A stretch of DNA of 64,000 bases from a bacterium. GTDB taxonomy: Bacteria > UBA8248. This document shows positions 44,663-54,995 of the stretch, piece by piece. Each line of letters begins with the position of its first letter. The stretch's first letter is position 1. The notes under the pieces were generated by a model. The model ran no database searches and was not told where the DNA came from. It saw only the letters and a program-made list of their open reading frames with translations. Location: NCBI GenBank assembly GCA_965213685.1, contig CBDBZY010000036.1, positions 1 through 64,000 on the forward strand, read 5' to 3'. Position numbers and translations under genes: made by a program.

Positions 44663-44992
44663 GCCTCCAGGCTCCGCGCCCGGCCGCGCGAAGAGTCTCG
44701 ACAGCCGCCGCACAGCCGTCCCGGCCGGAGGCGGGAGAAATTAGATTCTTGCCTCTCGCGTCGCTTTCGTGGTAGATTCGGAGAAACGCCAACCAGCGAA
44801 CGCAAGAAAAAACCGGAGCGGGACAACAACAGCCCTTTTAAATGGCTGATGCATTCCGATGATGGAAAATATGTTTCCCGCGTATCCGGGTTGGGTGAAG
44901 TCGCGGTTTCCTATCACCGAGAGAGGTGAAGCCATCGCTTGCGCCGTGGCCGCTGCGGCGTTCCGTCTCACAAAGGAGAAGGAGGGAATATA

Positions 44993-45991
44993 GTGAAAAC
45001 ATTGCGACGCTCGATGCGGGGCACTCCGTTCCTCACGCTCGCCCTGGTTTTGTTGGTCACGATTGCGCTGGGAGCCACCCAGGCTCTCGCCGCCTGGAAG
45101 CCGACCCGCCCGATTGAATTCATCATCATGGCGGGCAAAGGCGGGGGTGCGGACCGCATCGCCCGTCTCATGCAAAAAATCGTCACCCAAAACAAGTGGT
45201 CGCCGCAGCCCCTGGTGCCAATCAACAAAAAGGGGGGGTCAGGTGCCGAGGCGATGCTCTATCTCCATTCCAAAAAAGGGAATCCGCACGTCATTCTCGT
45301 TACGCTGAACAGTTTCTTCACCACCCCGGCCTTGCGGAACCTCCCGGTGAACTACACGAAACTCACGCCGGTCTATCGCCTGGCCATGGACACGTTCCTT
45401 CTCTGGGTCAATCCGAAATCGGGCATCAAGAACATCGACGATTTCGTGAAGGCCGTGAAAGCCAAGAAAGGGAAGTGGACGATGGGCGGCACCGGCAAGA
45501 TGCAAGAGGATCAGCTCGTCACCAACATGCTGATGCAGACGTATGGATTGAAGGGGATGATCACCTATGTGCCCTTCCGAGGCGGCGGCACCGTGGCCAA
45601 AAACCTCGCCGGCGGACACGTCGATTCCACCGTGAACAACCCCTCCGAGGGACTGCCCCACTACCCCGGCAAAATGCGGCCCATCGCCGCCCTGACCCCG
45701 GAGCGGATTCCGGCGTTCAAGGAGGTTCCCACCTTCAAGGAGCTGGGGAAGCCGGAGCTCGTGTATTTCATGCAGCGCAGCATCAACGCACCCGGCGGCA
45801 TCTCGAAAGACGCCCTGAAGTGGTATAGCGATTTGTTCACCAAGCTGTGCAATTCCGAGGAGTGGAAGTCCTACACGAAACAGAAAGCCCTGAACCGCGC
45901 CTGCCTGAGCGGTGCGCCGCTGGGAGAATTCTTCGCCTCCGAGGACGTGAAACACAAGCAGTTGCTCAAGGGCATGGGATTGCTGAAATAA
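44993..45991 (+). CDS. tctC: Tripartite tricarboxylate transporter substrate-binding protein (TctC/Bug)
   Basis: Signal peptide; WKPTRPIEFII..GKGGGAD..AR, NKKGGSG, YVPFRGGG, VPTFKELG. Confidence 0.9.
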   Translation: MKTLRRSMRGTPFLTLALVLLVTIALGATQALAAWKPTRPIEFIIMAGKGGGADRIARLMQKIVTQNKWSPQPLVPINKKGGSGAEAMLYLHSKKGNPHVILVTLNSFFTTPALRNLPVNYTKLTPVYRLAMDTFLLWVNPKSGIKNIDDFVKAVKAKKGKWTMGGTGKMQEDQLVTNMLMQTYGLKGMITYVPFRGGGTVAKNLAGGHVDSTVNNPSEGLPHYPGKMRPIAALTPERIPAFKEVPTFKELGKPELVYFMQRSINAPGGISKDALKWYSDLFTKLCNSEEWKSYTKQKALNRACLSGAPLGEFFASEDVKHKQLLKGMGLLK

Positions 45992-46008
45992 TCGGGAGAA
46001 GAATCTAG

Positions 46009-46500
46009 ATGCAGCGGGCGGATAGGGTTACCGCCATCGGGCTGATTCTTTTATCCCTTGGCGTCGCCTGGAAGTCGACAGAACTACCCATCGGCATTCT
46101 TCCCAAGGAAGGGCCAGGAGGGGGGTTCCTCCCCTTCTGGCTCTCTTTGGGGATAGCCGCCCTCGCGCTTCTCGTGCTGTTGAAGTCCCTTTTTTTCTCC
46201 GCGCAAGATGAATCAACCGGGGACGACGCCCCTCCGTTCGTGAGTTCGCAAGGGCTGGTCGACCTGTTGCGCGTCGGCTTTCCCGGAATGCTCATGATTC
46301 TGTTTGTCGCCATTATTTCGGTATATTTCTCCGCCGCGATCTTCATATTCTATTGTCTGTTCGTGGTCGGGAGACACAACCTGAGAACGAGTGTTGCCGT
46401 ATCTCTGGGCGTTCCCGTTGCGATCTACTACATCTTCGAGAAGTTCTTGATCATCCCCTTGCCAAAAGGGTATCTGGATTTCCTGTTTTACTGGAATTGA
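46009..46500 (+). CDS. tctB: Tripartite tricarboxylate transporter TctB
   Basis: GPGGGFLP, four to five TM segments, F...L.IPLPKG. Confidence 0.88.
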   Translation: MQRADRVTAIGLILLSLGVAWKSTELPIGILPKEGPGGGFLPFWLSLGIAALALLVLLKSLFFSAQDESTGDDAPPFVSSQGLVDLLRVGFPGMLMILFVAIISVYFSAAIFIFYCLFVVGRHNLRTSVAVSLGVPVAIYYIFEKFLIIPLPKGYLDFLFYWN

Positions 46501-46597
46501 GGGGCTCTCTTTTCTCTTTGTTGCGTTGTCCCGCCGTTCGACAAGACGTCCGCGCGATGGAGAGGGACAAGGTTGTTGGTCGGAAGGGTCGAATATA

Positions 46598-48124
46598 TTG
46601 GAGATTCTTGGAAACCTGTTTTACGGGCTAGGGATTGCGCTTTCGCCTCAAAACCTCTTGATGGCCCTGTTTGGCGTTGTTCTGGGCGTCGCCATTGGCG
46701 CGATGCCCGGCCTGGGTTCCGTGAACGGCGTCGCCATCCTCCTGCCGATCACGTTTGCGGTTCCGCCGACGAGCGCCATCATATTCCTGGCCGCCATCTA
46801 TTACGGCGCCATGTACGGCGGCGCCATCAGCTCCATCACCCTCAACATTCCGGGGGCGTCCACCGCCGTCGCGACCACGTTTGACGGCTATCCCCTGGCC
46901 AGAAAGGGCAAGGCGGCGGAGGCCCTTGTGGCTGCGGCGGTGGCCAGCTTTGTGGGCGGAACGCTGTCCATCGTCCTTTTTACGTTCTTCGCGCCGCCTC
47001 TGGCGGAATTCGCCCTCCGCTTCGGCCCCCCCGAGGAATTCGCCGTCGTGCTGCTGGCCTACGCCACTTTCGCGGGACTCGGCGGTGAAGACCCCATCAA
47101 GACGATCATCGCCACCATGCTGGGTCTGCTCATGTCCACTGTGGGCACCGACATCGTGAGCGGCTCGCCGCGCTTGATATTCGGAGGGATCACGGGTTTT
47201 TATCACGGCATCAATTTTCTCGTCCTGGCGATTGGCATCTACGGGGTCGGTGAAATTTTCTACACCCTGGAGGAAGGCATTCAGACGAAAGAGCGCTACC
47301 AGGCGAAGCTCAGCCTCCAGGAAGCCATCTCGACGCTCCGAAGCCTCTGGCAGCACTCCGCCACCATCCTGAAGGGTTCCGTTCTGGGGTTTTTTGTCGG
47401 CATGCTTCCGGCCGCCGGCGCAACGCCGGCGAGCTTCATGAGCTACAGCATCGCAAAAAAGTTTTCCAAAAACCCGGAGGAATTCGGCAAGGGCGCCATC
47501 GAGGGCGTCGCCGCACCCGAGTGCGCCAACAACGCCGCGAGCACCGGCTCCATGCTTCCCATGCTGACGCTGGGGATTCCGGGTTCCCCGACCACGGCGG
47601 TGATGCTCGGCGCCCTGTTCGTGTGGGGGCTTGTGCCGGGCCCTCGATTGTTCGTCGAGAACGCGGAGTTCGTGTGGGGACTGACGGGGAGTCTCTACAT
47701 CGCCAACACGCTGGCGGTCATGGTCGCTATTTTTGCGGTTCCGATTTTCATCTGGATGCTCAGGATGCCCATGACGATTCTGGCGCCGGTCATTCTCGTC
47801 GTCTGCGCCGTGGGCGGATTCTCGCCCACCCAGGACATGTTCGACGTGTATCTGATGTTCATATTCGGCGCGGCAGGGTATGTGTTTCGGAAGCTCGACT
47901 ATCCCCTTGCCCCGATGGTGCTGGCGCTGGTACTCGGAGGGCTGACGGAGCGCACCTTCCGCCAGAGCATGATCATGAGCCACGGGAGCCCGGGGATTCT
48001 TTTCGACTTCGCCGGGCGTCCGATAGCCGCAACCTTGATGGTCATTTCCATCACCTTGTTCATCATGCCCCTGTTGCCCATGCTCTTCAGGTTCCGGGTT
48101 TCTCGGAAAAAGACGGCGGCGTAG
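46598..48124 (+). CDS. tctA: Tripartite tricarboxylate transporter permease TctA
   Basis: GAMPGLG, YGGAISSI..NIPG, DGYP, APECANNA, LTLGIPG; TTG start. Confidence 0.93.
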   Translation: MEILGNLFYGLGIALSPQNLLMALFGVVLGVAIGAMPGLGSVNGVAILLPITFAVPPTSAIIFLAAIYYGAMYGGAISSITLNIPGASTAVATTFDGYPLARKGKAAEALVAAAVASFVGGTLSIVLFTFFAPPLAEFALRFGPPEEFAVVLLAYATFAGLGGEDPIKTIIATMLGLLMSTVGTDIVSGSPRLIFGGITGFYHGINFLVLAIGIYGVGEIFYTLEEGIQTKERYQAKLSLQEAISTLRSLWQHSATILKGSVLGFFVGMLPAAGATPASFMSYSIAKKFSKNPEEFGKGAIEGVAAPECANNAASTGSMLPMLTLGIPGSPTTAVMLGALFVWGLVPGPRLFVENAEFVWGLTGSLYIANTLAVMVAIFAVPIFIWMLRMPMTILAPVILVVCAVGGFSPTQDMFDVYLMFIFGAAGYVFRKLDYPLAPMVLALVLGGLTERTFRQSMIMSHGSPGILFDFAGRPIAATLMVISITLFIMPLLPMLFRFRVSRKKTAA

Positions 48125-48206: not shown

Positions 48207-49121
48207 CTAGGGGTCCATCGCGCACCGGAAGCCGATGTTGAAATTCTTGTACCACGGCTCGAAGCCTTCGCGCGCCGAACAGCGCAAGCTGTCCTCGATA
48301 TAATCCCAGCCGCAGCCGCGCGCCACCTTGGCGGTCCAGGCGTAGCCCGCCCTGCGGGGAAGCCAACCCTCGTCGTCTCCGAAGCGAATCTTGTAGCTGT
48401 CCTCGTCGCGCTGGAGGATTTCGTAACGCTCCCCCCGCCTGGCCTCCCCTACGCTCAGCGTCCCCCCGCCCGGGACGGCGAATACGGGAACCCGCGCCAT
48501 CGCCACTTCAAAGGTGGGTCTCTCCAGTCCGCGCGGGTTCTCCGCCGGGCTTGTTTGGTAATAAAAACCGTCAAACCAGTCCGAGACCCACTCAAAGACG
48601 TTCCCCGCCATTTGCACGCACCGATACGGGGAGCCGCTCTCTTCTTCGAGTTCATGGACATTGCGGGGATGGTGGACGTCAATCCCCGCGAAGACGGCCC
48701 GTTCGGGAGAAGGCTCCTCCCCGCCCCAGGGATATTTGCGCCCATCCGTTCCGCGCGACGCCTTTTCCCACTCCGCCTCGGTCGGCAGACGCTTGCCCGC
48801 CCACTCGGCATACGCATGGGCCTCGTCCCAACTGATGCTGACAATCGGCTGCTCTGGCCCCACGAAATCATCCTTCGAGAATGACGGCGGGGGAGGAAAT
48901 GCGTTGGTCTCCTCCAGAAAGGCGCGATACTGCGCGTTCGTCACGCAATACCTGTCGATCCAGAAAGCGTCGAGAATGACCTCATGCTGCGGACGCTCAT
49001 CCGCGTTGCCGGCATCCGATCCCATCAAGAACGGCCCGGCCGGCACGCACACCATGGGGGATTGGTCCTTCCCTCTTTTCATTTCCTCCGGCACCTCGTT
49101 CATCCTCATCTGCGCGCGCAT
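48207..49121 (-). CDS. Formylglycine-generating-enzyme (SUMF1/EgtB/PvdO) fold protein with an SH3-like insertion
   Basis: F.MGS, ERPQHEV, VTNAQY, RLPTEAEWEKASRG, YPWG, MAGNVFEW, NIGFRC. Confidence 0.85.
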   Translation of the reverse strand: MRAQMRMNEVPEEMKRGKDQSPMVCVPAGPFLMGSDAGNADERPQHEVILDAFWIDRYCVTNAQYRAFLEETNAFPPPPSFSKDDFVGPEQPIVSISWDEAHAYAEWAGKRLPTEAEWEKASRGTDGRKYPWGGEEPSPERAVFAGIDVHHPRNVHELEEESGSPYRCVQMAGNVFEWVSDWFDGFYYQTSPAENPRGLERPTFEVAMARVPVFAVPGGGTLSVGEARRGERYEILQRDEDSYKIRFGDDEGWLPRRAGYAWTAKVARGCGWDYIEDSLRCSAREGFEPWYKNFNIGFRCAMDP

Positions 49122-49140: not shown

Positions 49141-49172
49141 AAAAAGGACGGGGCCCGCGTCCGGGCCCCGTC
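49141..49172 (-). terminator. Rho-independent terminator after the oxidoreductase operon
   Basis: 11-bp stem GACGGGGCCCG / CGGGCCCCGTC followed by a T run on the minus strand. Confidence 0.8.
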
Positions 49173-49205: not shown

Positions 49206-50234
49206 TTACTTCTTGCTGGGGTCATTCACCCGGAAGGGGATGACGCCGGGCACCATCCAGTCGTCCCACATTTTGTCCACTTCTTCCTGGAAGTATTGAT
49301 AGTCTTCCTCCTCAAAATGGTGGAACCGACCCTGCGTCTCCAGGTATTCGCGCACCTGCTTGCGGGAGCGCTTGCCGTAGACCTGGCGCGCGGAGATGCC
49401 CGTATAGGTCAGCTGCCCGTCCGTCATCTCCCAGAGGGGGAAAAGGCCGGTTTCGACGGCCAGCTCCCCGAGCTTGTGAGAATAGAACGGGTCGTAGTCC
49501 CAGCCTTTGGGGCATGGATCCAGCGTGTGCACAAACGCCGGGCCCGTCGTGGCGAGGGCTTTTCTGACCTTGTCGATCAGGTCCGCCGGATACGAGGCGT
49601 CCGCCGTGGCCACGTAGTTGCAGCGCGTGTGCCCGACGGCGTACATGGCGGCGATGTTCTTCTTCCAGCAATCGTGCATGATGCGGAATTTCTTGCCGGG
49701 AGGCGTGAACGTCGTGTTGGCACCCCAGGGGGACGCGCCGGAAATCTGGATGTCCGTGTTCGCGTATGACTCGTTGTCATAGCAGATGATCGCCAGATTG
49801 TACTTCGCGTGCATCAGCGCGGCGGATATGGACGACACGCCCATGTCGATGCCGCCCCCGTCTCCGCAGAAGGCGATGACGTTGATCGGCTCTTCCTTCA
49901 TCTTGCCCTTTCTCATCAACGCGCGAAGAGCCGCCGCCGTTCCCGTCGCGGCCGAGCCGGACGACCCCAGCTGCGTATGCATCCACGGCACCACCCAGGG
50001 GGTGCTGTAATACGTGGTGTTCGCCACGTACATGCACCCCGTGCTGCCCAGAATGATGGAGCGGGGGCCTGCCGCCTTCGCCATGAGACGCATGATAAGG
50101 GCACTCTCGCAGCCCTGGCATGTCCTGTGCCCGCTCGTGAAATACTCCTCCACCGCTTTCTCGGGAATCGCGTTGACTTTCCCCATCAAGGGAAGCGCTT
50201 GCGTTCCAATGTTGTATTCGGAAGTTTCCGCCAT
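49206..50234 (-). CDS. 2-oxoacid:ferredoxin oxidoreductase beta subunit (oxalate oxidoreductase-like)
   Basis: GHRTCQGC, TGCMYVANT, TPP motif GDGG...DNESYANT, GANTTFTPPG, PCPKGW. Confidence 0.9.
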   Translation of the reverse strand: MAETSEYNIGTQALPLMGKVNAIPEKAVEEYFTSGHRTCQGCESALIMRLMAKAAGPRSIILGSTGCMYVANTTYYSTPWVVPWMHTQLGSSGSAATGTAAALRALMRKGKMKEEPINVIAFCGDGGGIDMGVSSISAALMHAKYNLAIICYDNESYANTDIQISGASPWGANTTFTPPGKKFRIMHDCWKKNIAAMYAVGHTRCNYVATADASYPADLIDKVRKALATTGPAFVHTLDPCPKGWDYDPFYSHKLGELAVETGLFPLWEMTDGQLTYTGISARQVYGKRSRKQVREYLETQGRFHHFEEEDYQYFQEEVDKMWDDWMVPGVIPFRVNDPSKK

Positions 50235-50236
50235 GA

Positions 50237-51454
50237 TTAGCCCCTCACTCCGATCCAGTCGACCTCGTTGTCGGCCACGTTGTTGTTGGCGATGGAAAAG
50301 ACTTGGTCCGCCATCTGTTTCACGTCCTCCAGCAGCACCTCGCGGCCCCCGAGGCCGCAAACGAACCCTTTCATGTGAGGCACCTTGTCCGCTCCATACA
50401 TGGCGGCTTTCACCTCATTATACAGGATGCCGCCGTGATAGGGCGACCCGAAAGAATAGTCGCGGTCAATGACCCCCACGGCCCGGAAGCGCGAGAGCGA
50501 CGCGCGCAACTCCTCCGTCGGGAACGGCCGGAACCATTTCAGGCGCACCAGACCGATTTTCTTGCCCTCCTTGCGCATTTCGCGGATGGCGACCTTCACC
50601 GGCAGGCTCAGCGTTCCCATGCCGCAAAGCACGATGTCGGCGTCCTCCGTCATGTATTCGTCGAGAAACGGGTCCGTGTCCGCGCCGAAAATCCTGCAGA
50701 AATCCGCGTGGGCTTCCTTCAGCACGGTGTAGGCGTTTTTCGCCGCCTCGCTGCTTTGCCGCCGCACTTCCATGAGCCAGTCTTCGTTGGCCTGCGGTGC
50801 GATGGTGATGGGATTGTCGGGGTGCAGCAACAAGTCGCCCCGATCATAGGGGGGGAGGAAGGCATTGACTTCCTCCTGTCCGGGCAGCCGCACCGTCGCC
50901 TGGCTGTGCGTCAGGAACGCGCCGTCCATCGCGATGGCGCACGGCAGATAGACCCTGGAGTCTTCAGCCACGCGATACGCCAACAGCCCGAGTTCGACGA
51001 CCTCCTGCGCCGTATCCGGAAAATTGATCATCCAGCCCAAATCGCGGACGAGCATGGCGTCGTTGTGCTCGGTGCCGAACGCGCCCGGATCATCCAGGGC
51101 GCGGCAGCCGACCAGCGCCACCATCGGCAGGCGCAAGCCCGCCGTGACGGCCAGCGGCTCCATCGCGTAGAGCCATCCCACGCCGCTGGAGCCCGTGAAT
51201 ACCCGCGCACCGCAAGCCGAGGCGTGCTTCACGATTTCAAACTGCCCGTGCTCGCTTTCCGCCGGAATGTAATCGGCGTCAAAATCGCCCTCTGCGATGA
51301 ATTTCGACACATACTGCATCACCGTGTCATACGGGCGTATGGGATACGCCGTGATGACGTCCACGTCCGCCAGGCGGCAGACGTGCGCCATGACCTCGCT
51401 TCCGGTGAGGAGATGTATTCCCGCACCTTGTTGCTGTTCGGTTGCCGTTGCCAT
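50237..51454 (-). CDS. 2-oxoacid:ferredoxin oxidoreductase alpha subunit (oxalate oxidoreductase-like)
   Basis: AYPIRPY, ESEH, RVFTGSSGVG, RALDDPG, FRPFP, GLGGR. Confidence 0.9.
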   Translation of the reverse strand: MATATEQQQGAGIHLLTGSEVMAHVCRLADVDVITAYPIRPYDTVMQYVSKFIAEGDFDADYIPAESEHGQFEIVKHASACGARVFTGSSGVGWLYAMEPLAVTAGLRLPMVALVGCRALDDPGAFGTEHNDAMLVRDLGWMINFPDTAQEVVELGLLAYRVAEDSRVYLPCAIAMDGAFLTHSQATVRLPGQEEVNAFLPPYDRGDLLLHPDNPITIAPQANEDWLMEVRRQSSEAAKNAYTVLKEAHADFCRIFGADTDPFLDEYMTEDADIVLCGMGTLSLPVKVAIREMRKEGKKIGLVRLKWFRPFPTEELRASLSRFRAVGVIDRDYSFGSPYHGGILYNEVKAAMYGADKVPHMKGFVCGLGGREVLLEDVKQMADQVFSIANNNVADNEVDWIGVRG

Positions 51455-51474
51455 CTGTCCGCTCCTATTTCCTA

Positions 51475-52662
51475 TTAAAGCTCTTTGAGAGGCTTGATTT
51501 TCGCCGTTTCGGAGTTGTGCCCCGCTTCGAGGCCCGCGCCCGAGAACGCCGCCGCGAGGCCGGTGATCGGGTGGCGGCCGCCTATTTTCCCGGTGGCGAT
51601 TTTCTCGTCCATGTAGTTTTCGTATTCCTCCTTGTTCTCGTGCCACATCTGGTATTGGCTGTCCCGCTCCTCGAAGACGACCTCGTTCACCATCGTGATG
51701 CAGTCTTTGACGGGACAAATGGCCTCGCACACGCCGCAGCCGCAACAGGCCTCCATGTTGGCGTCGAAGAAGCCGTCCGGGGTGACGTCGAAGCAGGTGT
51801 CCGGACACGCGACCCAGCAAAGGGTGCACTTCGTGCATTTATCGAAGGAGACGACCGGGCGCATGGTGCGGGTGGACCATTTTTTGAAATACGGGTTGCG
51901 GCCCGGCTCATACCCGCCGTCGCCGCCCCGAAAGCCCTCATGGCCGCCCACTCCGTCGATGACGACGCCCTGCCGCATTTCATGCCATTTCAGGAGCTCG
52001 AAGGTGAACGGGACTTCGTCGTTGCCCTGTCCCGGTTCGACTTCGACCGGGCGCAAATCCTCATAGACTTCGCGCGCGGCCTCGACGTGCGTCTCCGAGC
52101 CGATGTTCTCGCGAATGGCCGACTCCAGGGACGCGACGGAGCACATGCCGGGCTCGGCTTTCAGTGCCGCCCCCAGGCAGCGCGCGTCGGTTCCGTCGTC
52201 CTTGTACACCCAAAGGCCCGCGAAGCTCGGGTCGCTGTGGATGACCGCAAGTTTGTAGGGCGTTTCCCGGCGGTGAATATGCTTGACGAGCTCGCTCTCC
52301 TTCTTCGTCGAGGTGACGATCAGCGTGCCGCCAGGCTTCGTGACGGCGTTGATGGGCTGGAGGCCATACCATGCCCAGGACTCCACGCCCTTGCAGAGGG
52401 TGTCATCCACGCAGATGGAAATGTCCACCTGCTTGGGCTCATACTGCGCCGCCACGGACTCGAGCTCCTCTTCATTGTCCGCGATGTAGCCGAATTGCTT
52501 CGCCGGAATCCCGTTCCGCTCGGGCGAGTCGCTGTAGCGGCCAAATGAAATTCCCGGCTTCCCCTCCTTCACGGCCGCGAGAATCAGCGACCGTGAAATG
52601 TTCACGGCAAGCTGCTTCTGAAAGATCCCCCTGTAAATCACCTCAAATGATATGACGCTCAC
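51475..52662 (-). CDS. 2-oxoacid:ferredoxin oxidoreductase fused gamma/delta subunit with two [4Fe-4S] motifs
   Basis: Gamma-like N-terminal domain (DSPERNGIP) plus CTKCTLCWVACP and CCGCGVCEAICP. Confidence 0.88.
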   Translation of the reverse strand: MSVISFEVIYRGIFQKQLAVNISRSLILAAVKEGKPGISFGRYSDSPERNGIPAKQFGYIADNEEELESVAAQYEPKQVDISICVDDTLCKGVESWAWYGLQPINAVTKPGGTLIVTSTKKESELVKHIHRRETPYKLAVIHSDPSFAGLWVYKDDGTDARCLGAALKAEPGMCSVASLESAIRENIGSETHVEAAREVYEDLRPVEVEPGQGNDEVPFTFELLKWHEMRQGVVIDGVGGHEGFRGGDGGYEPGRNPYFKKWSTRTMRPVVSFDKCTKCTLCWVACPDTCFDVTPDGFFDANMEACCGCGVCEAICPVKDCITMVNEVVFEERDSQYQMWHENKEEYENYMDEKIATGKIGGRHPITGLAAAFSGAGLEAGHNSETAKIKPLKEL

Positions 52663-52761: not shown

Positions 52762-53532
52762 CTATGTTCTGATTTTCATTGCGCTCATCTCCTGATCCTC
52801 GATGCCCTCCGCCTCGACCAGATGGCGGATCATTCCCGAGATCGCCCTGTTTTTGTCGTTGGCGAGAACGGCGTCCAGAATCTGGCGATGCGCCTCCCAT
52901 GAATGCAGCCGGGCATTCTTGTCCCGAAGCGAGCGCTCCCGCATCTCGCTCAGGGAATTCAGCAGGCTATTCAGCAAGTGGTGCAGAAATTTGTTTTTCG
53001 CCGCTTCCGCAAGACCCAGATGAAACTCGGTGTCCTCCTCCAGGCCGAGTCCCCCTCCCGCTATCTCGGCGTGCTGCCGCTCCAGCGTGCGTTCGAGGCT
53101 CTGCGCTTCCTCCACGGTTGCCCGTTCCGCCGCCAGGGCTGTAATTTGCGGCTCCAGGACCCTGCGCGCCTCAAAGAGGTGGCGGATGCCGCTCTCGGTG
53201 CTGGACGACACTTTTTCGGAAATCACGGGGACCAGGGATTCGGGGCGGGCGGTGACAAACGTGCCCTCCCCCTGTCTCGTCTCCACCAGCCGGGCCGACT
53301 CCAGGGAGCGCGTGGCCTCCCGGACCGAATTGCGGCCAACGCCGAACTGCTCGCACAACTCGCGCTCGGACGGCAGCTTCTCCCCCGGCCTGATGGCGCC
53401 TTCCAGTATCAAGGAAGTGAGCTGGGCGACTATCGCCTCGTAGACGCGGGTTTTCTTCACCGCCTGGAGTTTGGCGTTGATGGCCAAAGCAGGTTCCTTC
53501 CCCACCAGGTTGCGCGTTTCGCGGTGCGCCAA
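52762..53532 (-). CDS. GntR/FadR family transcriptional regulator
   Basis: PGEKLPSERELCEQFGVGRNSVREA, QGEGTFV, FCD domain (EARRVLE, DTEFH, H..ILDA). Confidence 0.93.
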   Translation of the reverse strand: MAHRETRNLVGKEPALAINAKLQAVKKTRVYEAIVAQLTSLILEGAIRPGEKLPSERELCEQFGVGRNSVREATRSLESARLVETRQGEGTFVTARPESLVPVISEKVSSSTESGIRHLFEARRVLEPQITALAAERATVEEAQSLERTLERQHAEIAGGGLGLEEDTEFHLGLAEAAKNKFLHHLLNSLLNSLSEMRERSLRDKNARLHSWEAHRQILDAVLANDKNRAISGMIRHLVEAEGIEDQEMSAMKIRT

Positions 53533-53554: not shown

Positions 53555-53568
53555 ATTGTCCTACCAAT
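53555..53568. promoter_or_regulatory. Candidate FadR-family operator
   Basis: ATTGTCCTACCAAT (reverse ATTGGTAGGACAAT), resembling PdhR/LldR-type TTGGT-n-ACCAA boxes, just upstream of the regulator. Confidence 0.55.
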
Positions 53569-53720
53569 GATTCTATCCCCTCCGCGCAGCCGGAGTCAAC
53601 CCCGGAAACGGGGGGCATTTGCGCCTTTTCCTCTGGAACAACCACATTTTCGCAACTTTTTCCTGCGGCGCTTGGTGAGAAGTCCCCCGCCAGTTTTCGC
53701 TCATCCGCCCTGGTGCTAGA

Positions 53721-54995
53721 ATGCGCCGTTTCCGTTTCCCCGCATTTCGTTTCCGTGAAAGACGCGAAGCCTTGAAAAAATGGCAGCTTCTCGCCCTGCT
53801 CACCACCGGACACGCTTTTGAGCATTGGTACCAAGGCGTCCTGGGGCCCATCCTCCCCTTCCTGGCGGCGGACCTGCACCTCACCCTGACCCAGGTGGGA
53901 CTCCTGTTCACGGGCCGGGCCGTGATGAGCGCTTTCAGCAGCGTGGGAACGGGCCTGATCATCGACTCCTATGGCGGCGGAAAATGGCTGCTGGCCGGCT
54001 GCATGGTCTCCGTCGCCCTGTTCTACGGCGGCGCGAGTTTCGCGACCGGATTTTTCACGTTGGCCCCCCTCCTGTGGCTGAGCGGCCTGGCAACCCACAG
54101 CTGGCATCCGCCCGCCATGGGGCTGCTGGGAATGCGTTTTGAGAACCGCAAGGGTTTTGCGTTGGGCATACACGGAACCGGCGCGAACGTGGGGCAAACG
54201 CTGGCGCCCATCATCGCGGGTTTTCTGCTCCTGGTAATGAATTGGCGAGGCGTGTTGCTCGTCAACACCATTCCGCTGTTCGCCACGGCGCTGCTCCTGG
54301 GCATGTATCTGGAGCCCTTCGCGCTGGGCGGAAGCCAGAAGTTCGCCTCCCCCATTCGCGCGGAAAACTTCCAAAGCTCCCTCCTCAGAAATCCCGGCAT
54401 GATGGGCGCTTGCGTCCTCTCGGGGGCGAGAACGCTGGCGCATAACGTGATTCTGATTTTTCTCCCCATATTGCTCGTCCAGAAATACGGAATGGCTCCG
54501 GGCGCGCTGGGAATCGTCATCGGCGTATATTCGGCGGCGTCCATATTCCCAGAGACGATTGTCGGCTATCTCTCCGACAGGGTGTCGAGAAAACTGATCC
54601 TGTTTGTCGGGGTCGCCGCCGGCGGCGCATCGATGCTCGCGATTCCGCACGCGGGAACGGGAATGCTCCTCTACGTTTGCGTCATATCCGTCGGCGTTTT
54701 CCTGATTTCCATGCGCTCCGTCATTTTCGCGTACAGCTTCGAGGTCAGCCCGCCCGAACTCGCCGGAAGCGTCGTCGGCGTCATATTTACGGCGAACCAG
54801 ATATGGGTTGGTTTGGGTTTGTTTTTTCTGGGTATACTGGCGGACGCGCACGGGCTAGATGTCGTCTTCGGGGCCATCGGCATATTATGCATGGGAAGTC
54901 TGGCCGCTTTCTCATGGCTGCCCAGGACAGAGGGAAAATCAGGATTTCAGCGACCGGCTGCCGATATGGGAGATTCCGCGCGCTCCTCGCCATAG
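53721..54995 (+). CDS. MFS transporter (Fsr-like)
   Basis: About 12 TM segments; H...H.YQ..L.PILP, WHPPA, G.ALGIH..G.N.G, GYLSDR.SRK. Confidence 0.88.
   Translation: MRRFRFPAFRFRERREALKKWQLLALLTTGHAFEHWYQGVLGPILPFLAADLHLTLTQVGLLFTGRAVMSAFSSVGTGLIIDSYGGGKWLLAGCMVSVALFYGGASFATGFFTLAPLLWLSGLATHSWHPPAMGLLGMRFENRKGFALGIHGTGANVGQTLAPIIAGFLLLVMNWRGVLLVNTIPLFATALLLGMYLEPFALGGSQKFASPIRAENFQSSLLRNPGMMGACVLSGARTLAHNVILIFLPILLVQKYGMAPGALGIVIGVYSAASIFPETIVGYLSDRVSRKLILFVGVAAGGASMLAIPHAGTGMLLYVCVISVGVFLISMRSVIFAYSFEVSPPELAGSVVGVIFTANQIWVGLGLFFLGILADAHGLDVVFGAIGILCMGSLAAFSWLPRTEGKSGFQRPAADMGDSARSSP

Follow-up and report, generated by a model that had tools for sequence, protein, structure and literature searches.

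A Candidate Coenzyme A-Independent Oxalate Oxidoreductase of a Distinct Clade with a Changed Active-Site Loop in the Bacterial Lineage UBA8248

The oxalate oxidoreductase (OOR) of Moorella thermoacetica (EC 1.2.7.10; PDB 5C4I, 5EXD, and 5EXE) is the closest described relative of the system discussed here. It consists of alpha, beta, and gamma-delta fusion subunits, which carry thiamine pyrophosphate (TPP) plus three [4Fe-4S] clusters; its substrate, oxalate, is a major product of plants and fungi that drives the oxalate-carbonate pathway in soils. Next come the pyruvate:ferredoxin oxidoreductases (PFORs) of the PorABDG type (e.g., PDB 9bt4), which belong to the same superfamily of 2-oxoacid:ferredoxin oxidoreductases (OFORs) and have the same domain set; their chemistry depends on coenzyme A (CoA), their gamma and delta subunits are separate chains, and they are devoid of the OOR-type switch loop. 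According to passages of PMC5020499, the three chains of OOR hold domains I-II (alpha), VI (beta), and III-V (the gamma-delta fusion), the YPIRP motif is unique to OOR, and Arg31 of this motif acts together with Asp116 in a "bait and switch" mechanism. The genes considered here occupy positions 49206..52662 of a 64,000-nucleotide stretch, hereafter the window, from a bacterium of the GTDB lineage UBA8248 (assembly GCA_965213685.1, contig CBDBZY010000036.1). They would encode a CoA-independent oxalate:acceptor oxidoreductase of a clade distinct from that of Moorella OOR, a reading that the sequence comparisons and the gene neighbourhoods make moderately probable.

The span is made up of exactly three consecutive open reading frames (ORFs) on the minus strand:

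51475-52662, minus strand: gamma-delta fusion subunit, GTG start, 395 amino acids (aa), with domain III and the two-[4Fe-4S] ferredoxin domain V
50237-51454, minus strand: alpha subunit, 405 aa, with domains I and II (Pfam POR_N and PFOR_II)
49206-50234, minus strand: beta subunit, 342 aa, with the TPP-binding domain VI and the proximal cluster cysteines (Pfam TPP_enzyme_C)

Every Pfam match lies above its cut-off (POR_N, 9e-58; PFOR_II, 4.3e-28; TPP_enzyme_C, 2.5e-15; Fer4_21, 2.6e-9), the last one placing a 4Fe-4S dicluster domain at residues 272-324 of gamma-delta. The domain set of the OFOR superfamily (I/II, VI, and a ferredoxin-like dicluster) is complete, and the ORFs and the Fer4_21 match bear out the original prediction of three subunits with gamma fused to a two-[4Fe-4S] domain. 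For all three subunits the best solved match found with phmmer is OOR: 5c4i_A for alpha (E 1.3e-99), 5c4i_C for beta (1.4e-83), and 5c4i_B for gamma-delta (2e-19; query residues 8-331 opposite residues 17-314 of the 315 of the chain). The second-best solved match is the four-subunit PFOR 9bt4 (alpha 3.1e-63, beta 2e-58, delta 9.1e-15). Homology matches of 1e-19 to 1e-99 are not due to chance, and the gene order together with the full-length alignments to chains A, B, and C of 5c4i reproduces the three-chain layout of OOR. The OOR equivalogs of NCBIfam (NF045790-NF045792) are likewise the top-scoring models for the three subunits. Residues 331-395 of gamma-delta (51475-51670) extend beyond the point where OOR delta ends, by about 64 residues.

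The resemblance extends to the active site, with one conspicuous replacement. YPIRP lies at alpha residues 37-41, with Arg40 as its arginine, and the alignment to 5c4i_A sets the OOR switch loop RTLDPPGDFGEEH (109-121) opposite RALDDPGAFGTEH (118-130) of the query, a loop that contains Arg118, Asp122, Ala125, and Phe126. The equivalences from OOR to query are Arg31 to Arg40, Arg109 to Arg118, Asp116 to Ala125, and Phe117 to Phe126. The original prediction had given RTLDPPGDFG as the OOR motif and had proposed that both arginines are kept and that the aspartate is now alanine; the alignment agrees on each count. It had also noted that the beta motifs follow OOR, and all four (GHRTCQGC, TGCMYVANT, GANTTFTPPG, and PCPKGW) are identical at the aligned positions of 5c4i_C.

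The alanine is not peculiar to the window. Among 120 best homologues (64-92% identical) and the query, YPIRP occurs in 121 of 121 sequences and RALDDPGAFG[V/T/C]EH in all. Related loci were collected by a scan of one genome per species, which gave at least 549 matching stretches, at least 475 of them encoding a relative; the best 80 loci were used, and their 79 alpha ORFs comprise 75 with RALDDPGAFG, three that are truncated, and a single one from a class B second copy. Two classes were defined, namely, class A, to which the query belongs (alpha RALDDPGAFG, beta NT-D-IQ), and class B, or Moorella type (alpha RTLDPPGDFG, beta NT-G-IQ). The alpha subunits of the two classes, about 41-45% identical to each other, are fixed differently at 46 positions (119 class A and 94 class B sequences). 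Position 125 is Ala in 100% of class A and Asp in 100% of class B, and position 122 is Asp in 100% of class A and Pro in 100% of class B; further fixed differences (A/B) are Ala119/Thr, Asn131/Thr, His77/Gly, Trp94/Val, Asp43/Thr, Glu224-Asp225-Trp226/Pro-Glu-Gln, Arg231/Gln, and Asp330-Arg331-Asp332/Glu-Thr-Asn. In beta, 21 positions are fixed differently. One of them, position 161 in the query segment YDNESYANT-D-IQ, is occupied by Asp in all 70 class A proteins compared and by Gly in 96% of the 85 class B proteins, and it lies two residues past the Asn that aligns with Asn143 of OOR beta, which we take to be an active-site residue.

As judged from these alignments, Ala125 is a fixed trait of the clade and no lone mutation. 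Relative to OOR, the loop of class A has Ala for Asp116, Asp for Pro113, and Ala for Thr110, and its beta has Asp161 for Gly. Because alpha Asp122 in place of Pro and beta Asp161 in place of Gly are both fixed in class A, the acidic charge appears to have been moved rather than lost. The original prediction had contained neither the clade-wide fixation of the alanine nor the two new aspartates (alpha 122 and beta 161), nor the operon's own GntR/FCD regulator described below. No description of an Asp-less sister clade of OOR was found in the searchable literature, although the primary OOR structure papers may contain a survey of homologues.

A quick IQ-TREE analysis of 64 alpha subunits, with branch support given by the Shimodaira-Hasegawa-like approximate likelihood-ratio test (SH-aLRT) alone, covered 18 rows of the query clade, four other YPIRP/FPIRP rows, and 42 (every second one) of the 84 remaining full-length representatives at 50% identity. 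The query falls inside a starred YPIRP clade of 22 rows (support 99), apart from 42 rows of the PorA/VorA/PadG type. This clade comprises the 18 class A rows (support 99), one FPIRP row (P0132), and three class B rows of the Moorella type (support 99), and class A with P0132 is sister to the Moorella type. The classes each form one starred branch, and the query thus lies outside the clade of the characterised OOR, as its sister; the class B representative P0133 scores above the curated OOR alpha cut-off (583 > 500). On this tree, the query clade is a large sister group of the sole known oxalate oxidoreductase, separate from the pyruvate-type enzymes. The earlier assignment to the OOR clade is borne out, and a grouping with ordinary pyruvate enzymes was not seen. 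P0132 (414 aa) represents a third type within the YPIRP clade, with FPIRP and a different loop; it adjoins class A with support 87 and reaches 385 bits with the OOR alpha model, below the cut-off of 500.

Databases name these proteins otherwise. Every name on the 120 best homologues is "pyruvate ferredoxin oxidoreductase", as had been anticipated for automatic pipelines, and the models PorA, PorB, and VorB match strongly, with 327 bits for alpha (PorA_Arch) and 278 bits for beta (PorB). An ordinary CoA-dependent PFOR, or a 2-ketoisovalerate:ferredoxin oxidoreductase, is nevertheless highly improbable. Both scores lie far below their cut-offs (327 < 550 and 278 < 405) and below those of the OOR models; the query is separated from the 42 Por/Vor-type rows with starred support; and the Thr of YPITP, which stands opposite YPIRP in 9bt4 alpha and is, as the original prediction had it, the form of pyruvate-type enzymes (the commonest one among the PorA-type representatives examined), is Arg in the query. 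Furthermore, the genome of the window encodes AceE (1413 bits, above cut-off), and because of this pyruvate oxidation is already covered. By the title of a 2017 paper by Pierce et al., OOR is reportedly inactivated by pyruvate, which also counts against a PFOR. For practical annotation, the motif pair RALDDPGAFG in alpha and NTDIQ in beta offers a simple rule to tell class A from PFOR and from Moorella-type OOR.

The substrate is addressed best by the company that the operon keeps in other genomes. The 80 loci come from Nitrospinota, Tectomicrobia, Acidobacteriota, Myxococcota, Alpha- and Gammaproteobacteria, Chloroflexota, Bacillota, Actinomycetota, and Gemmatimonadota, hosts that, unlike Moorella, are mostly non-acetogens. 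In tblastn searches with the window proteins, gamma-delta was found in 72 of the 80 loci and beta in 79. Neighbours were counted from 903 called ORFs by clustering and family searches, for all 80 loci and for the subset of 40 flanked by 4.5 kb or more on each side:

34 of 80 loci (18 of 40): gene of a major facilitator superfamily (MFS) transporter adjoining beta
14-15 of 80 loci (7-9 of 40): Tct genes near the operon
9 of 80 loci (9 of 40): PanE/ApbA-family reductase
9 of 80 loci (8 of 40): adenosine monophosphate (AMP)-ligase
4 of 80 loci (4 of 40): class-V aminotransferase

TRAP, lactate-permease, or CitMHS transporters occur in few loci. A representative MFS protein scores above the cut-off of the NCBIfam oxalate/formate antiporter equivalog (528 > 335) and matches the solved OxlT 8hpj with E 1.8e-70. 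In the alignment it keeps all five first-shell oxalate ligands, Gln34, Tyr35, Tyr124, Arg272, and Lys355, which are those named for OxlT in a passage of PMC10070484; the surroundings of Arg272 read NGLCRP in the representative and NGGCRP in OxlT. The best solved relatives of the AMP-ligase are oxalyl-CoA synthetases (6qjz, 1.1e-122; 5ie0, 8.9e-122), and the PanE/ApbA-family reductase is found in the nine AMP-ligase loci; the Methylobacterium extorquens protein PanE2 functions as an oxalyl-CoA reductase, according to part of PMC8411744. Taken together, these neighbours describe uptake of oxalate, its oxidation for reducing power, and its assimilation via oxalyl-CoA and glyoxylate. Because OxlT-type transporters and oxalyl-CoA-synthetase-like and PanE-like genes lie beside the GntR-headed operon in other phyla, oxalate is the likeliest substrate, and a fairly probable one.

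Several observations weigh against oxalate, or against a plain transfer of the OOR mechanism. Asp116, described as mechanistically important in passages of PMC5020499, is missing from the query alpha. Several of the 46 alpha and 21 beta class differences adjoin active-site motifs. The curated OOR cut-offs are missed by all three subunits (OxalOxredalpha, 366 < 500; OxalOxredbeta, 339 < 590; OxalOxreddelta, 95.6 < 230); this last point carries little weight, for an acidobacterial beta of class B likewise falls below the OxalOxredbeta cut-off (438 < 590). The representative MFS protein also passes the L-lactate MFS cut-off, if more narrowly (336.5 > 320). Searches of the whole genome of the window gave no hit above cut-off for OxlT, Oxc, or Frc and no close oxalyl-CoA synthetase, the best match being 33% identical, and the operon neighbours here are TctABC, a generic MFS transporter, and an FGE-like gene, not OxlT or oxalyl-CoA genes. 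Finally, class A and class B can occur together. In an Acidobacteriaceae metagenome-assembled genome (locus L076), a class B set comes right after the class A operon, and of the five class A-bearing acidobacterial genomes searched, two encode a class B alpha as well, which shares 88% identity with P0133.

These observations nourish the view that class A oxidises some other small dianionic or polar 2-oxo compound (mesoxalate, oxaloacetate, sulfopyruvate, oxamate, or glyoxylate) and would have only the two-arginine binding mode in common with OOR. Besides the replacement of Asp116 and the fixed differences, among them His77, Trp94, Glu224-Asp225-Trp226, Arg231, and Asp330-Arg331-Asp332, this view draws on the coexistence of A and B (L076; two of five genomes), as expected of paralogues with different jobs, and on the neighbours in the window's lineage, where TctABC, the generic MFS transporter, and lactate permease (four loci) stand with no oxalate genes nearby. 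However, both arginines and Phe126 are kept, with a spacing that suits a C2 dicarboxylate; oxalate-specific neighbours recur across phyla; no neighbour indicates any alternative substrate; and coexistence is equally explained by different acceptors, since the class B enzymes of L076 and of two further loci, L102 and L103, are joined to a GltD-like NAD(P)-binding protein. Another substrate is therefore considered unlikely. The original prediction had left the choice between oxalate and a possibly new substrate, such as another doubly anionic 2-oxoacid; the first part is favoured by the neighbourhoods in other phyla, and the second becomes the less likely branch because of the OxlT-type, oxalyl-CoA-synthetase-like, and PanE-like genes found there.

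The coexistence of the two classes suggests that their roles are not redundant, and it fits different substrates or different acceptors (NAD(P)+ versus ferredoxin) alike. The class B set of L076 (10641-15529) consists of a separate gamma of 215 aa, a GltD-like NAD(P)-binding protein of 610 aa with the delta ferredoxin domain at its end, an alpha with RTLDPPGDFGSEHTD, and a beta with NTGIQ; the locus also has oxalyl-CoA-synthetase-like and PanE-like genes. Its sequences suggest that an OOR linked to NAD(P) exists alongside one linked to ferredoxin. In one acidobacterial genome the class B alpha lies about 14 kb from class A. L102 (G045:C10:212000-229000) and L103 (G043:C2:2257000-2274000) are class B operons of two Acidobacteriota with the same gene order, namely, ThiC, a divergent GntR/FCD gene, a CDC48-family AAA ATPase (about 738 aa), gamma, the GltD-like-delta fusion, alpha, and beta. 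The acidobacterial class B operons (L076, L102, and L103) thus resemble the query in belonging to the YPIRP clade and in having a GntR/FCD regulator nearby, and differ from it in that they keep RTLDPPGDFG and NT-G-IQ, have a separate gamma of 215 aa and a delta fused to the 610-aa GltD-like flavoprotein, and have the CDC48-type AAA ATPase upstream.

Two further observations concern such partners and copies. A 460-aa Pyr_redox_2/GltD-like protein is encoded beside the class A operon in four gammaproteobacterial and Acetobacteraceae loci (L065:5075-6457, L070, L074, and L072), immediately preceding gamma-delta in L065, L070, and L074, and is a possible NAD(P)-coupling partner of class A. One acidobacterial genome has two class-A-like alphas about 20 kb apart (G042:C6:989983-991173 and 1010454-1011632), whose identities to the class B query are 44% and 42%.

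If class A acts on oxalate, catalysis may be pictured as follows. Oxalate would be bound between alpha Arg40 and Arg118 and would then add to the TPP held by beta, and two decarboxylations would yield two CO2. The two electrons would pass from the proximal [4Fe-4S] cluster of beta to the two clusters of the delta domain and on to a ferredoxin-type acceptor. The negative charge that helps to expel CO2 would come from Asp122 of the same loop and/or from beta Asp161, not from a mobile Asp116 as in Moorella. These two residues are the candidate fixed acids of class A. That the class represents either an OOR in which fixed acids replace the moving Asp or an enzyme for another small dianionic 2-oxoacid is proposed only tentatively.

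A variant of the oxalate reading concerns the physiological direction and partner of the enzyme, which could be an oxygen-tolerant OOR that feeds the respiratory chain of aerobes, the gamma-delta tail shielding the clusters. The carriers are mostly lineages known as aerobic or facultative (Acidobacteriota, Myxococcota, Rhodospirillales, Gammaproteobacteria, and Nitrospinota), AceE is present in the genome, and gamma-delta is 64 residues longer than OOR delta in the query, with a median length of 391 aa in the related loci. Set against this, the operon has no conserved ferredoxin or reductase gene at its side in the lineage of the window. The shielding role of the tail is a guess, and the variant, which is quite unlikely, is more a refinement of the best explanation than a true alternative to it.

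The operon, unlike that of Moorella, is headed by a gene for a GntR/FCD regulator. The following features lie at its two ends:

52762..53532, minus strand: GntR-family regulator with FCD ligand-binding domain, the first gene (Pfam GntR 1.3e-23, FCD 1.6e-23)
53570..53599, minus strand: promoter-like TTGACT-18 nt-TAGAAT upstream of the GntR gene (10 of 12 consensus positions matched in a scan, pattern only)
53556..53566, minus strand: FadR/GntR-type operator-like site TGGTAGGACAA (read by eye and script)
49147..49172, minus strand: terminator-like hairpin just past the beta stop, 11 pairs, 10 of them G-C, followed by CTTTTT (consensus scan, pattern only)

The boundaries of the unit are clear in the window from these predicted sites, though the region holds two promoter-like sites against a mean of 1.2 after shuffling. 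The operator-like site begins 4 nt past the -10 hexamer and ends 24 nt ahead of the GntR start, and near relatives (L004-L008) have it unchanged. Of 51 related loci, 22 show TGGTnnnACCA, one mismatch being allowed, close to the start of the GntR gene; elsewhere in these loci the background is 0.043 per 230 bp. The regulator itself is widespread; in 55 of the 80 related loci (tblastn) a GntR homologue on the same strand immediately precedes gamma-delta, as one does in 34 of the 40 loci of the subset. Given the positions of promoter, operator, and terminator and the recurrence of the operator, GntR, gamma-delta, alpha, and beta probably form one autoregulated transcription unit, in which the FCD-type GntR probably represses its own promoter via TGGTAGGACAA until an organic-acid effector binds.

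Three further loci surround the unit in the window:

53721..54995, plus strand: MFS transporter of no specific family (Pfam MFS_1), divergent from the operon and possibly associated with it
44939..48124, plus strand: TctC-TctB-TctA tripartite tricarboxylate-type transporter (Pfam TctC, TctB, and TctA), convergent with the operon
48207-49121, minus strand: FGE-sulfatase-like gene after beta, 304 aa (Pfam 3.5e-47)

The window MFS protein has weak NCBIfam matches only, none of them to OxlT, and only within the lineage of the window, at 13 of 80 loci, do MFS genes of this type lie beside the operon. In the tblastn searches, Tct genes are near the operon in 15-17 of the 80 loci, distant lineages (L025, L030, L034, L039, L043, and L077) among them. 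TctABC or the generic MFS transporter may serve as the uptake system in the window's lineage. The FGE-like gene was considered as a member of the operon and rejected, as the terminator-like hairpin separates it from beta and its conservation beside the operon is confined to the window's lineage (15 of 80 loci). Its product, 304 aa long, matches the Pfam profile as far as residue 194, where position 203 of the 255 in the profile is reached.

The assembly itself comprises 8.0 Mb in 71 contigs. The 22 genomes of the same genus range from 2.9 to 4.6 Mb, and the assembly may be a merged or duplicated bin, although its estimated contamination is 3.7%. It has one other OFOR only, of the two-subunit type, on contig 27. 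The alpha gene was found in 19 of the 22 same-genus and 21 of the 24 same-family genomes searched, and is stable in the lineage. With OxlT, Oxc, Frc, and a close oxalyl-CoA synthetase all missing from the window's genome, the enzyme would be the sole recognisable oxalate-degrading function of the lineage, serving oxidation and not assimilation. What the window contributes is a lineage in which the operon stands by TctABC, free of OxlT and oxalyl-CoA neighbours.

For the family as a whole, class A offers a natural experiment on the "bait and switch" model, because the Asp that the model invokes is missing and two new aspartates are fixed. If class A is indeed an OOR with fixed acids, it would represent a second catalytic solution, one that may tolerate oxygen. 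A gut-microbiome survey (PMC8062136, in the part consulted) profiled oxalate degraders by OXDD, FRC, and OXC, with OOR left out. Such surveys would overlook a capacity for oxalate degradation in Acidobacteriota, Myxococcota, Nitrospinota, and other groups as long as a CoA-free oxidoreductase is filed as PFOR. The fixed-acid enzyme would then give aerobic soil and marine bacteria a CoA-free oxidation of oxalate that is invisible to surveys of frc and oxc.

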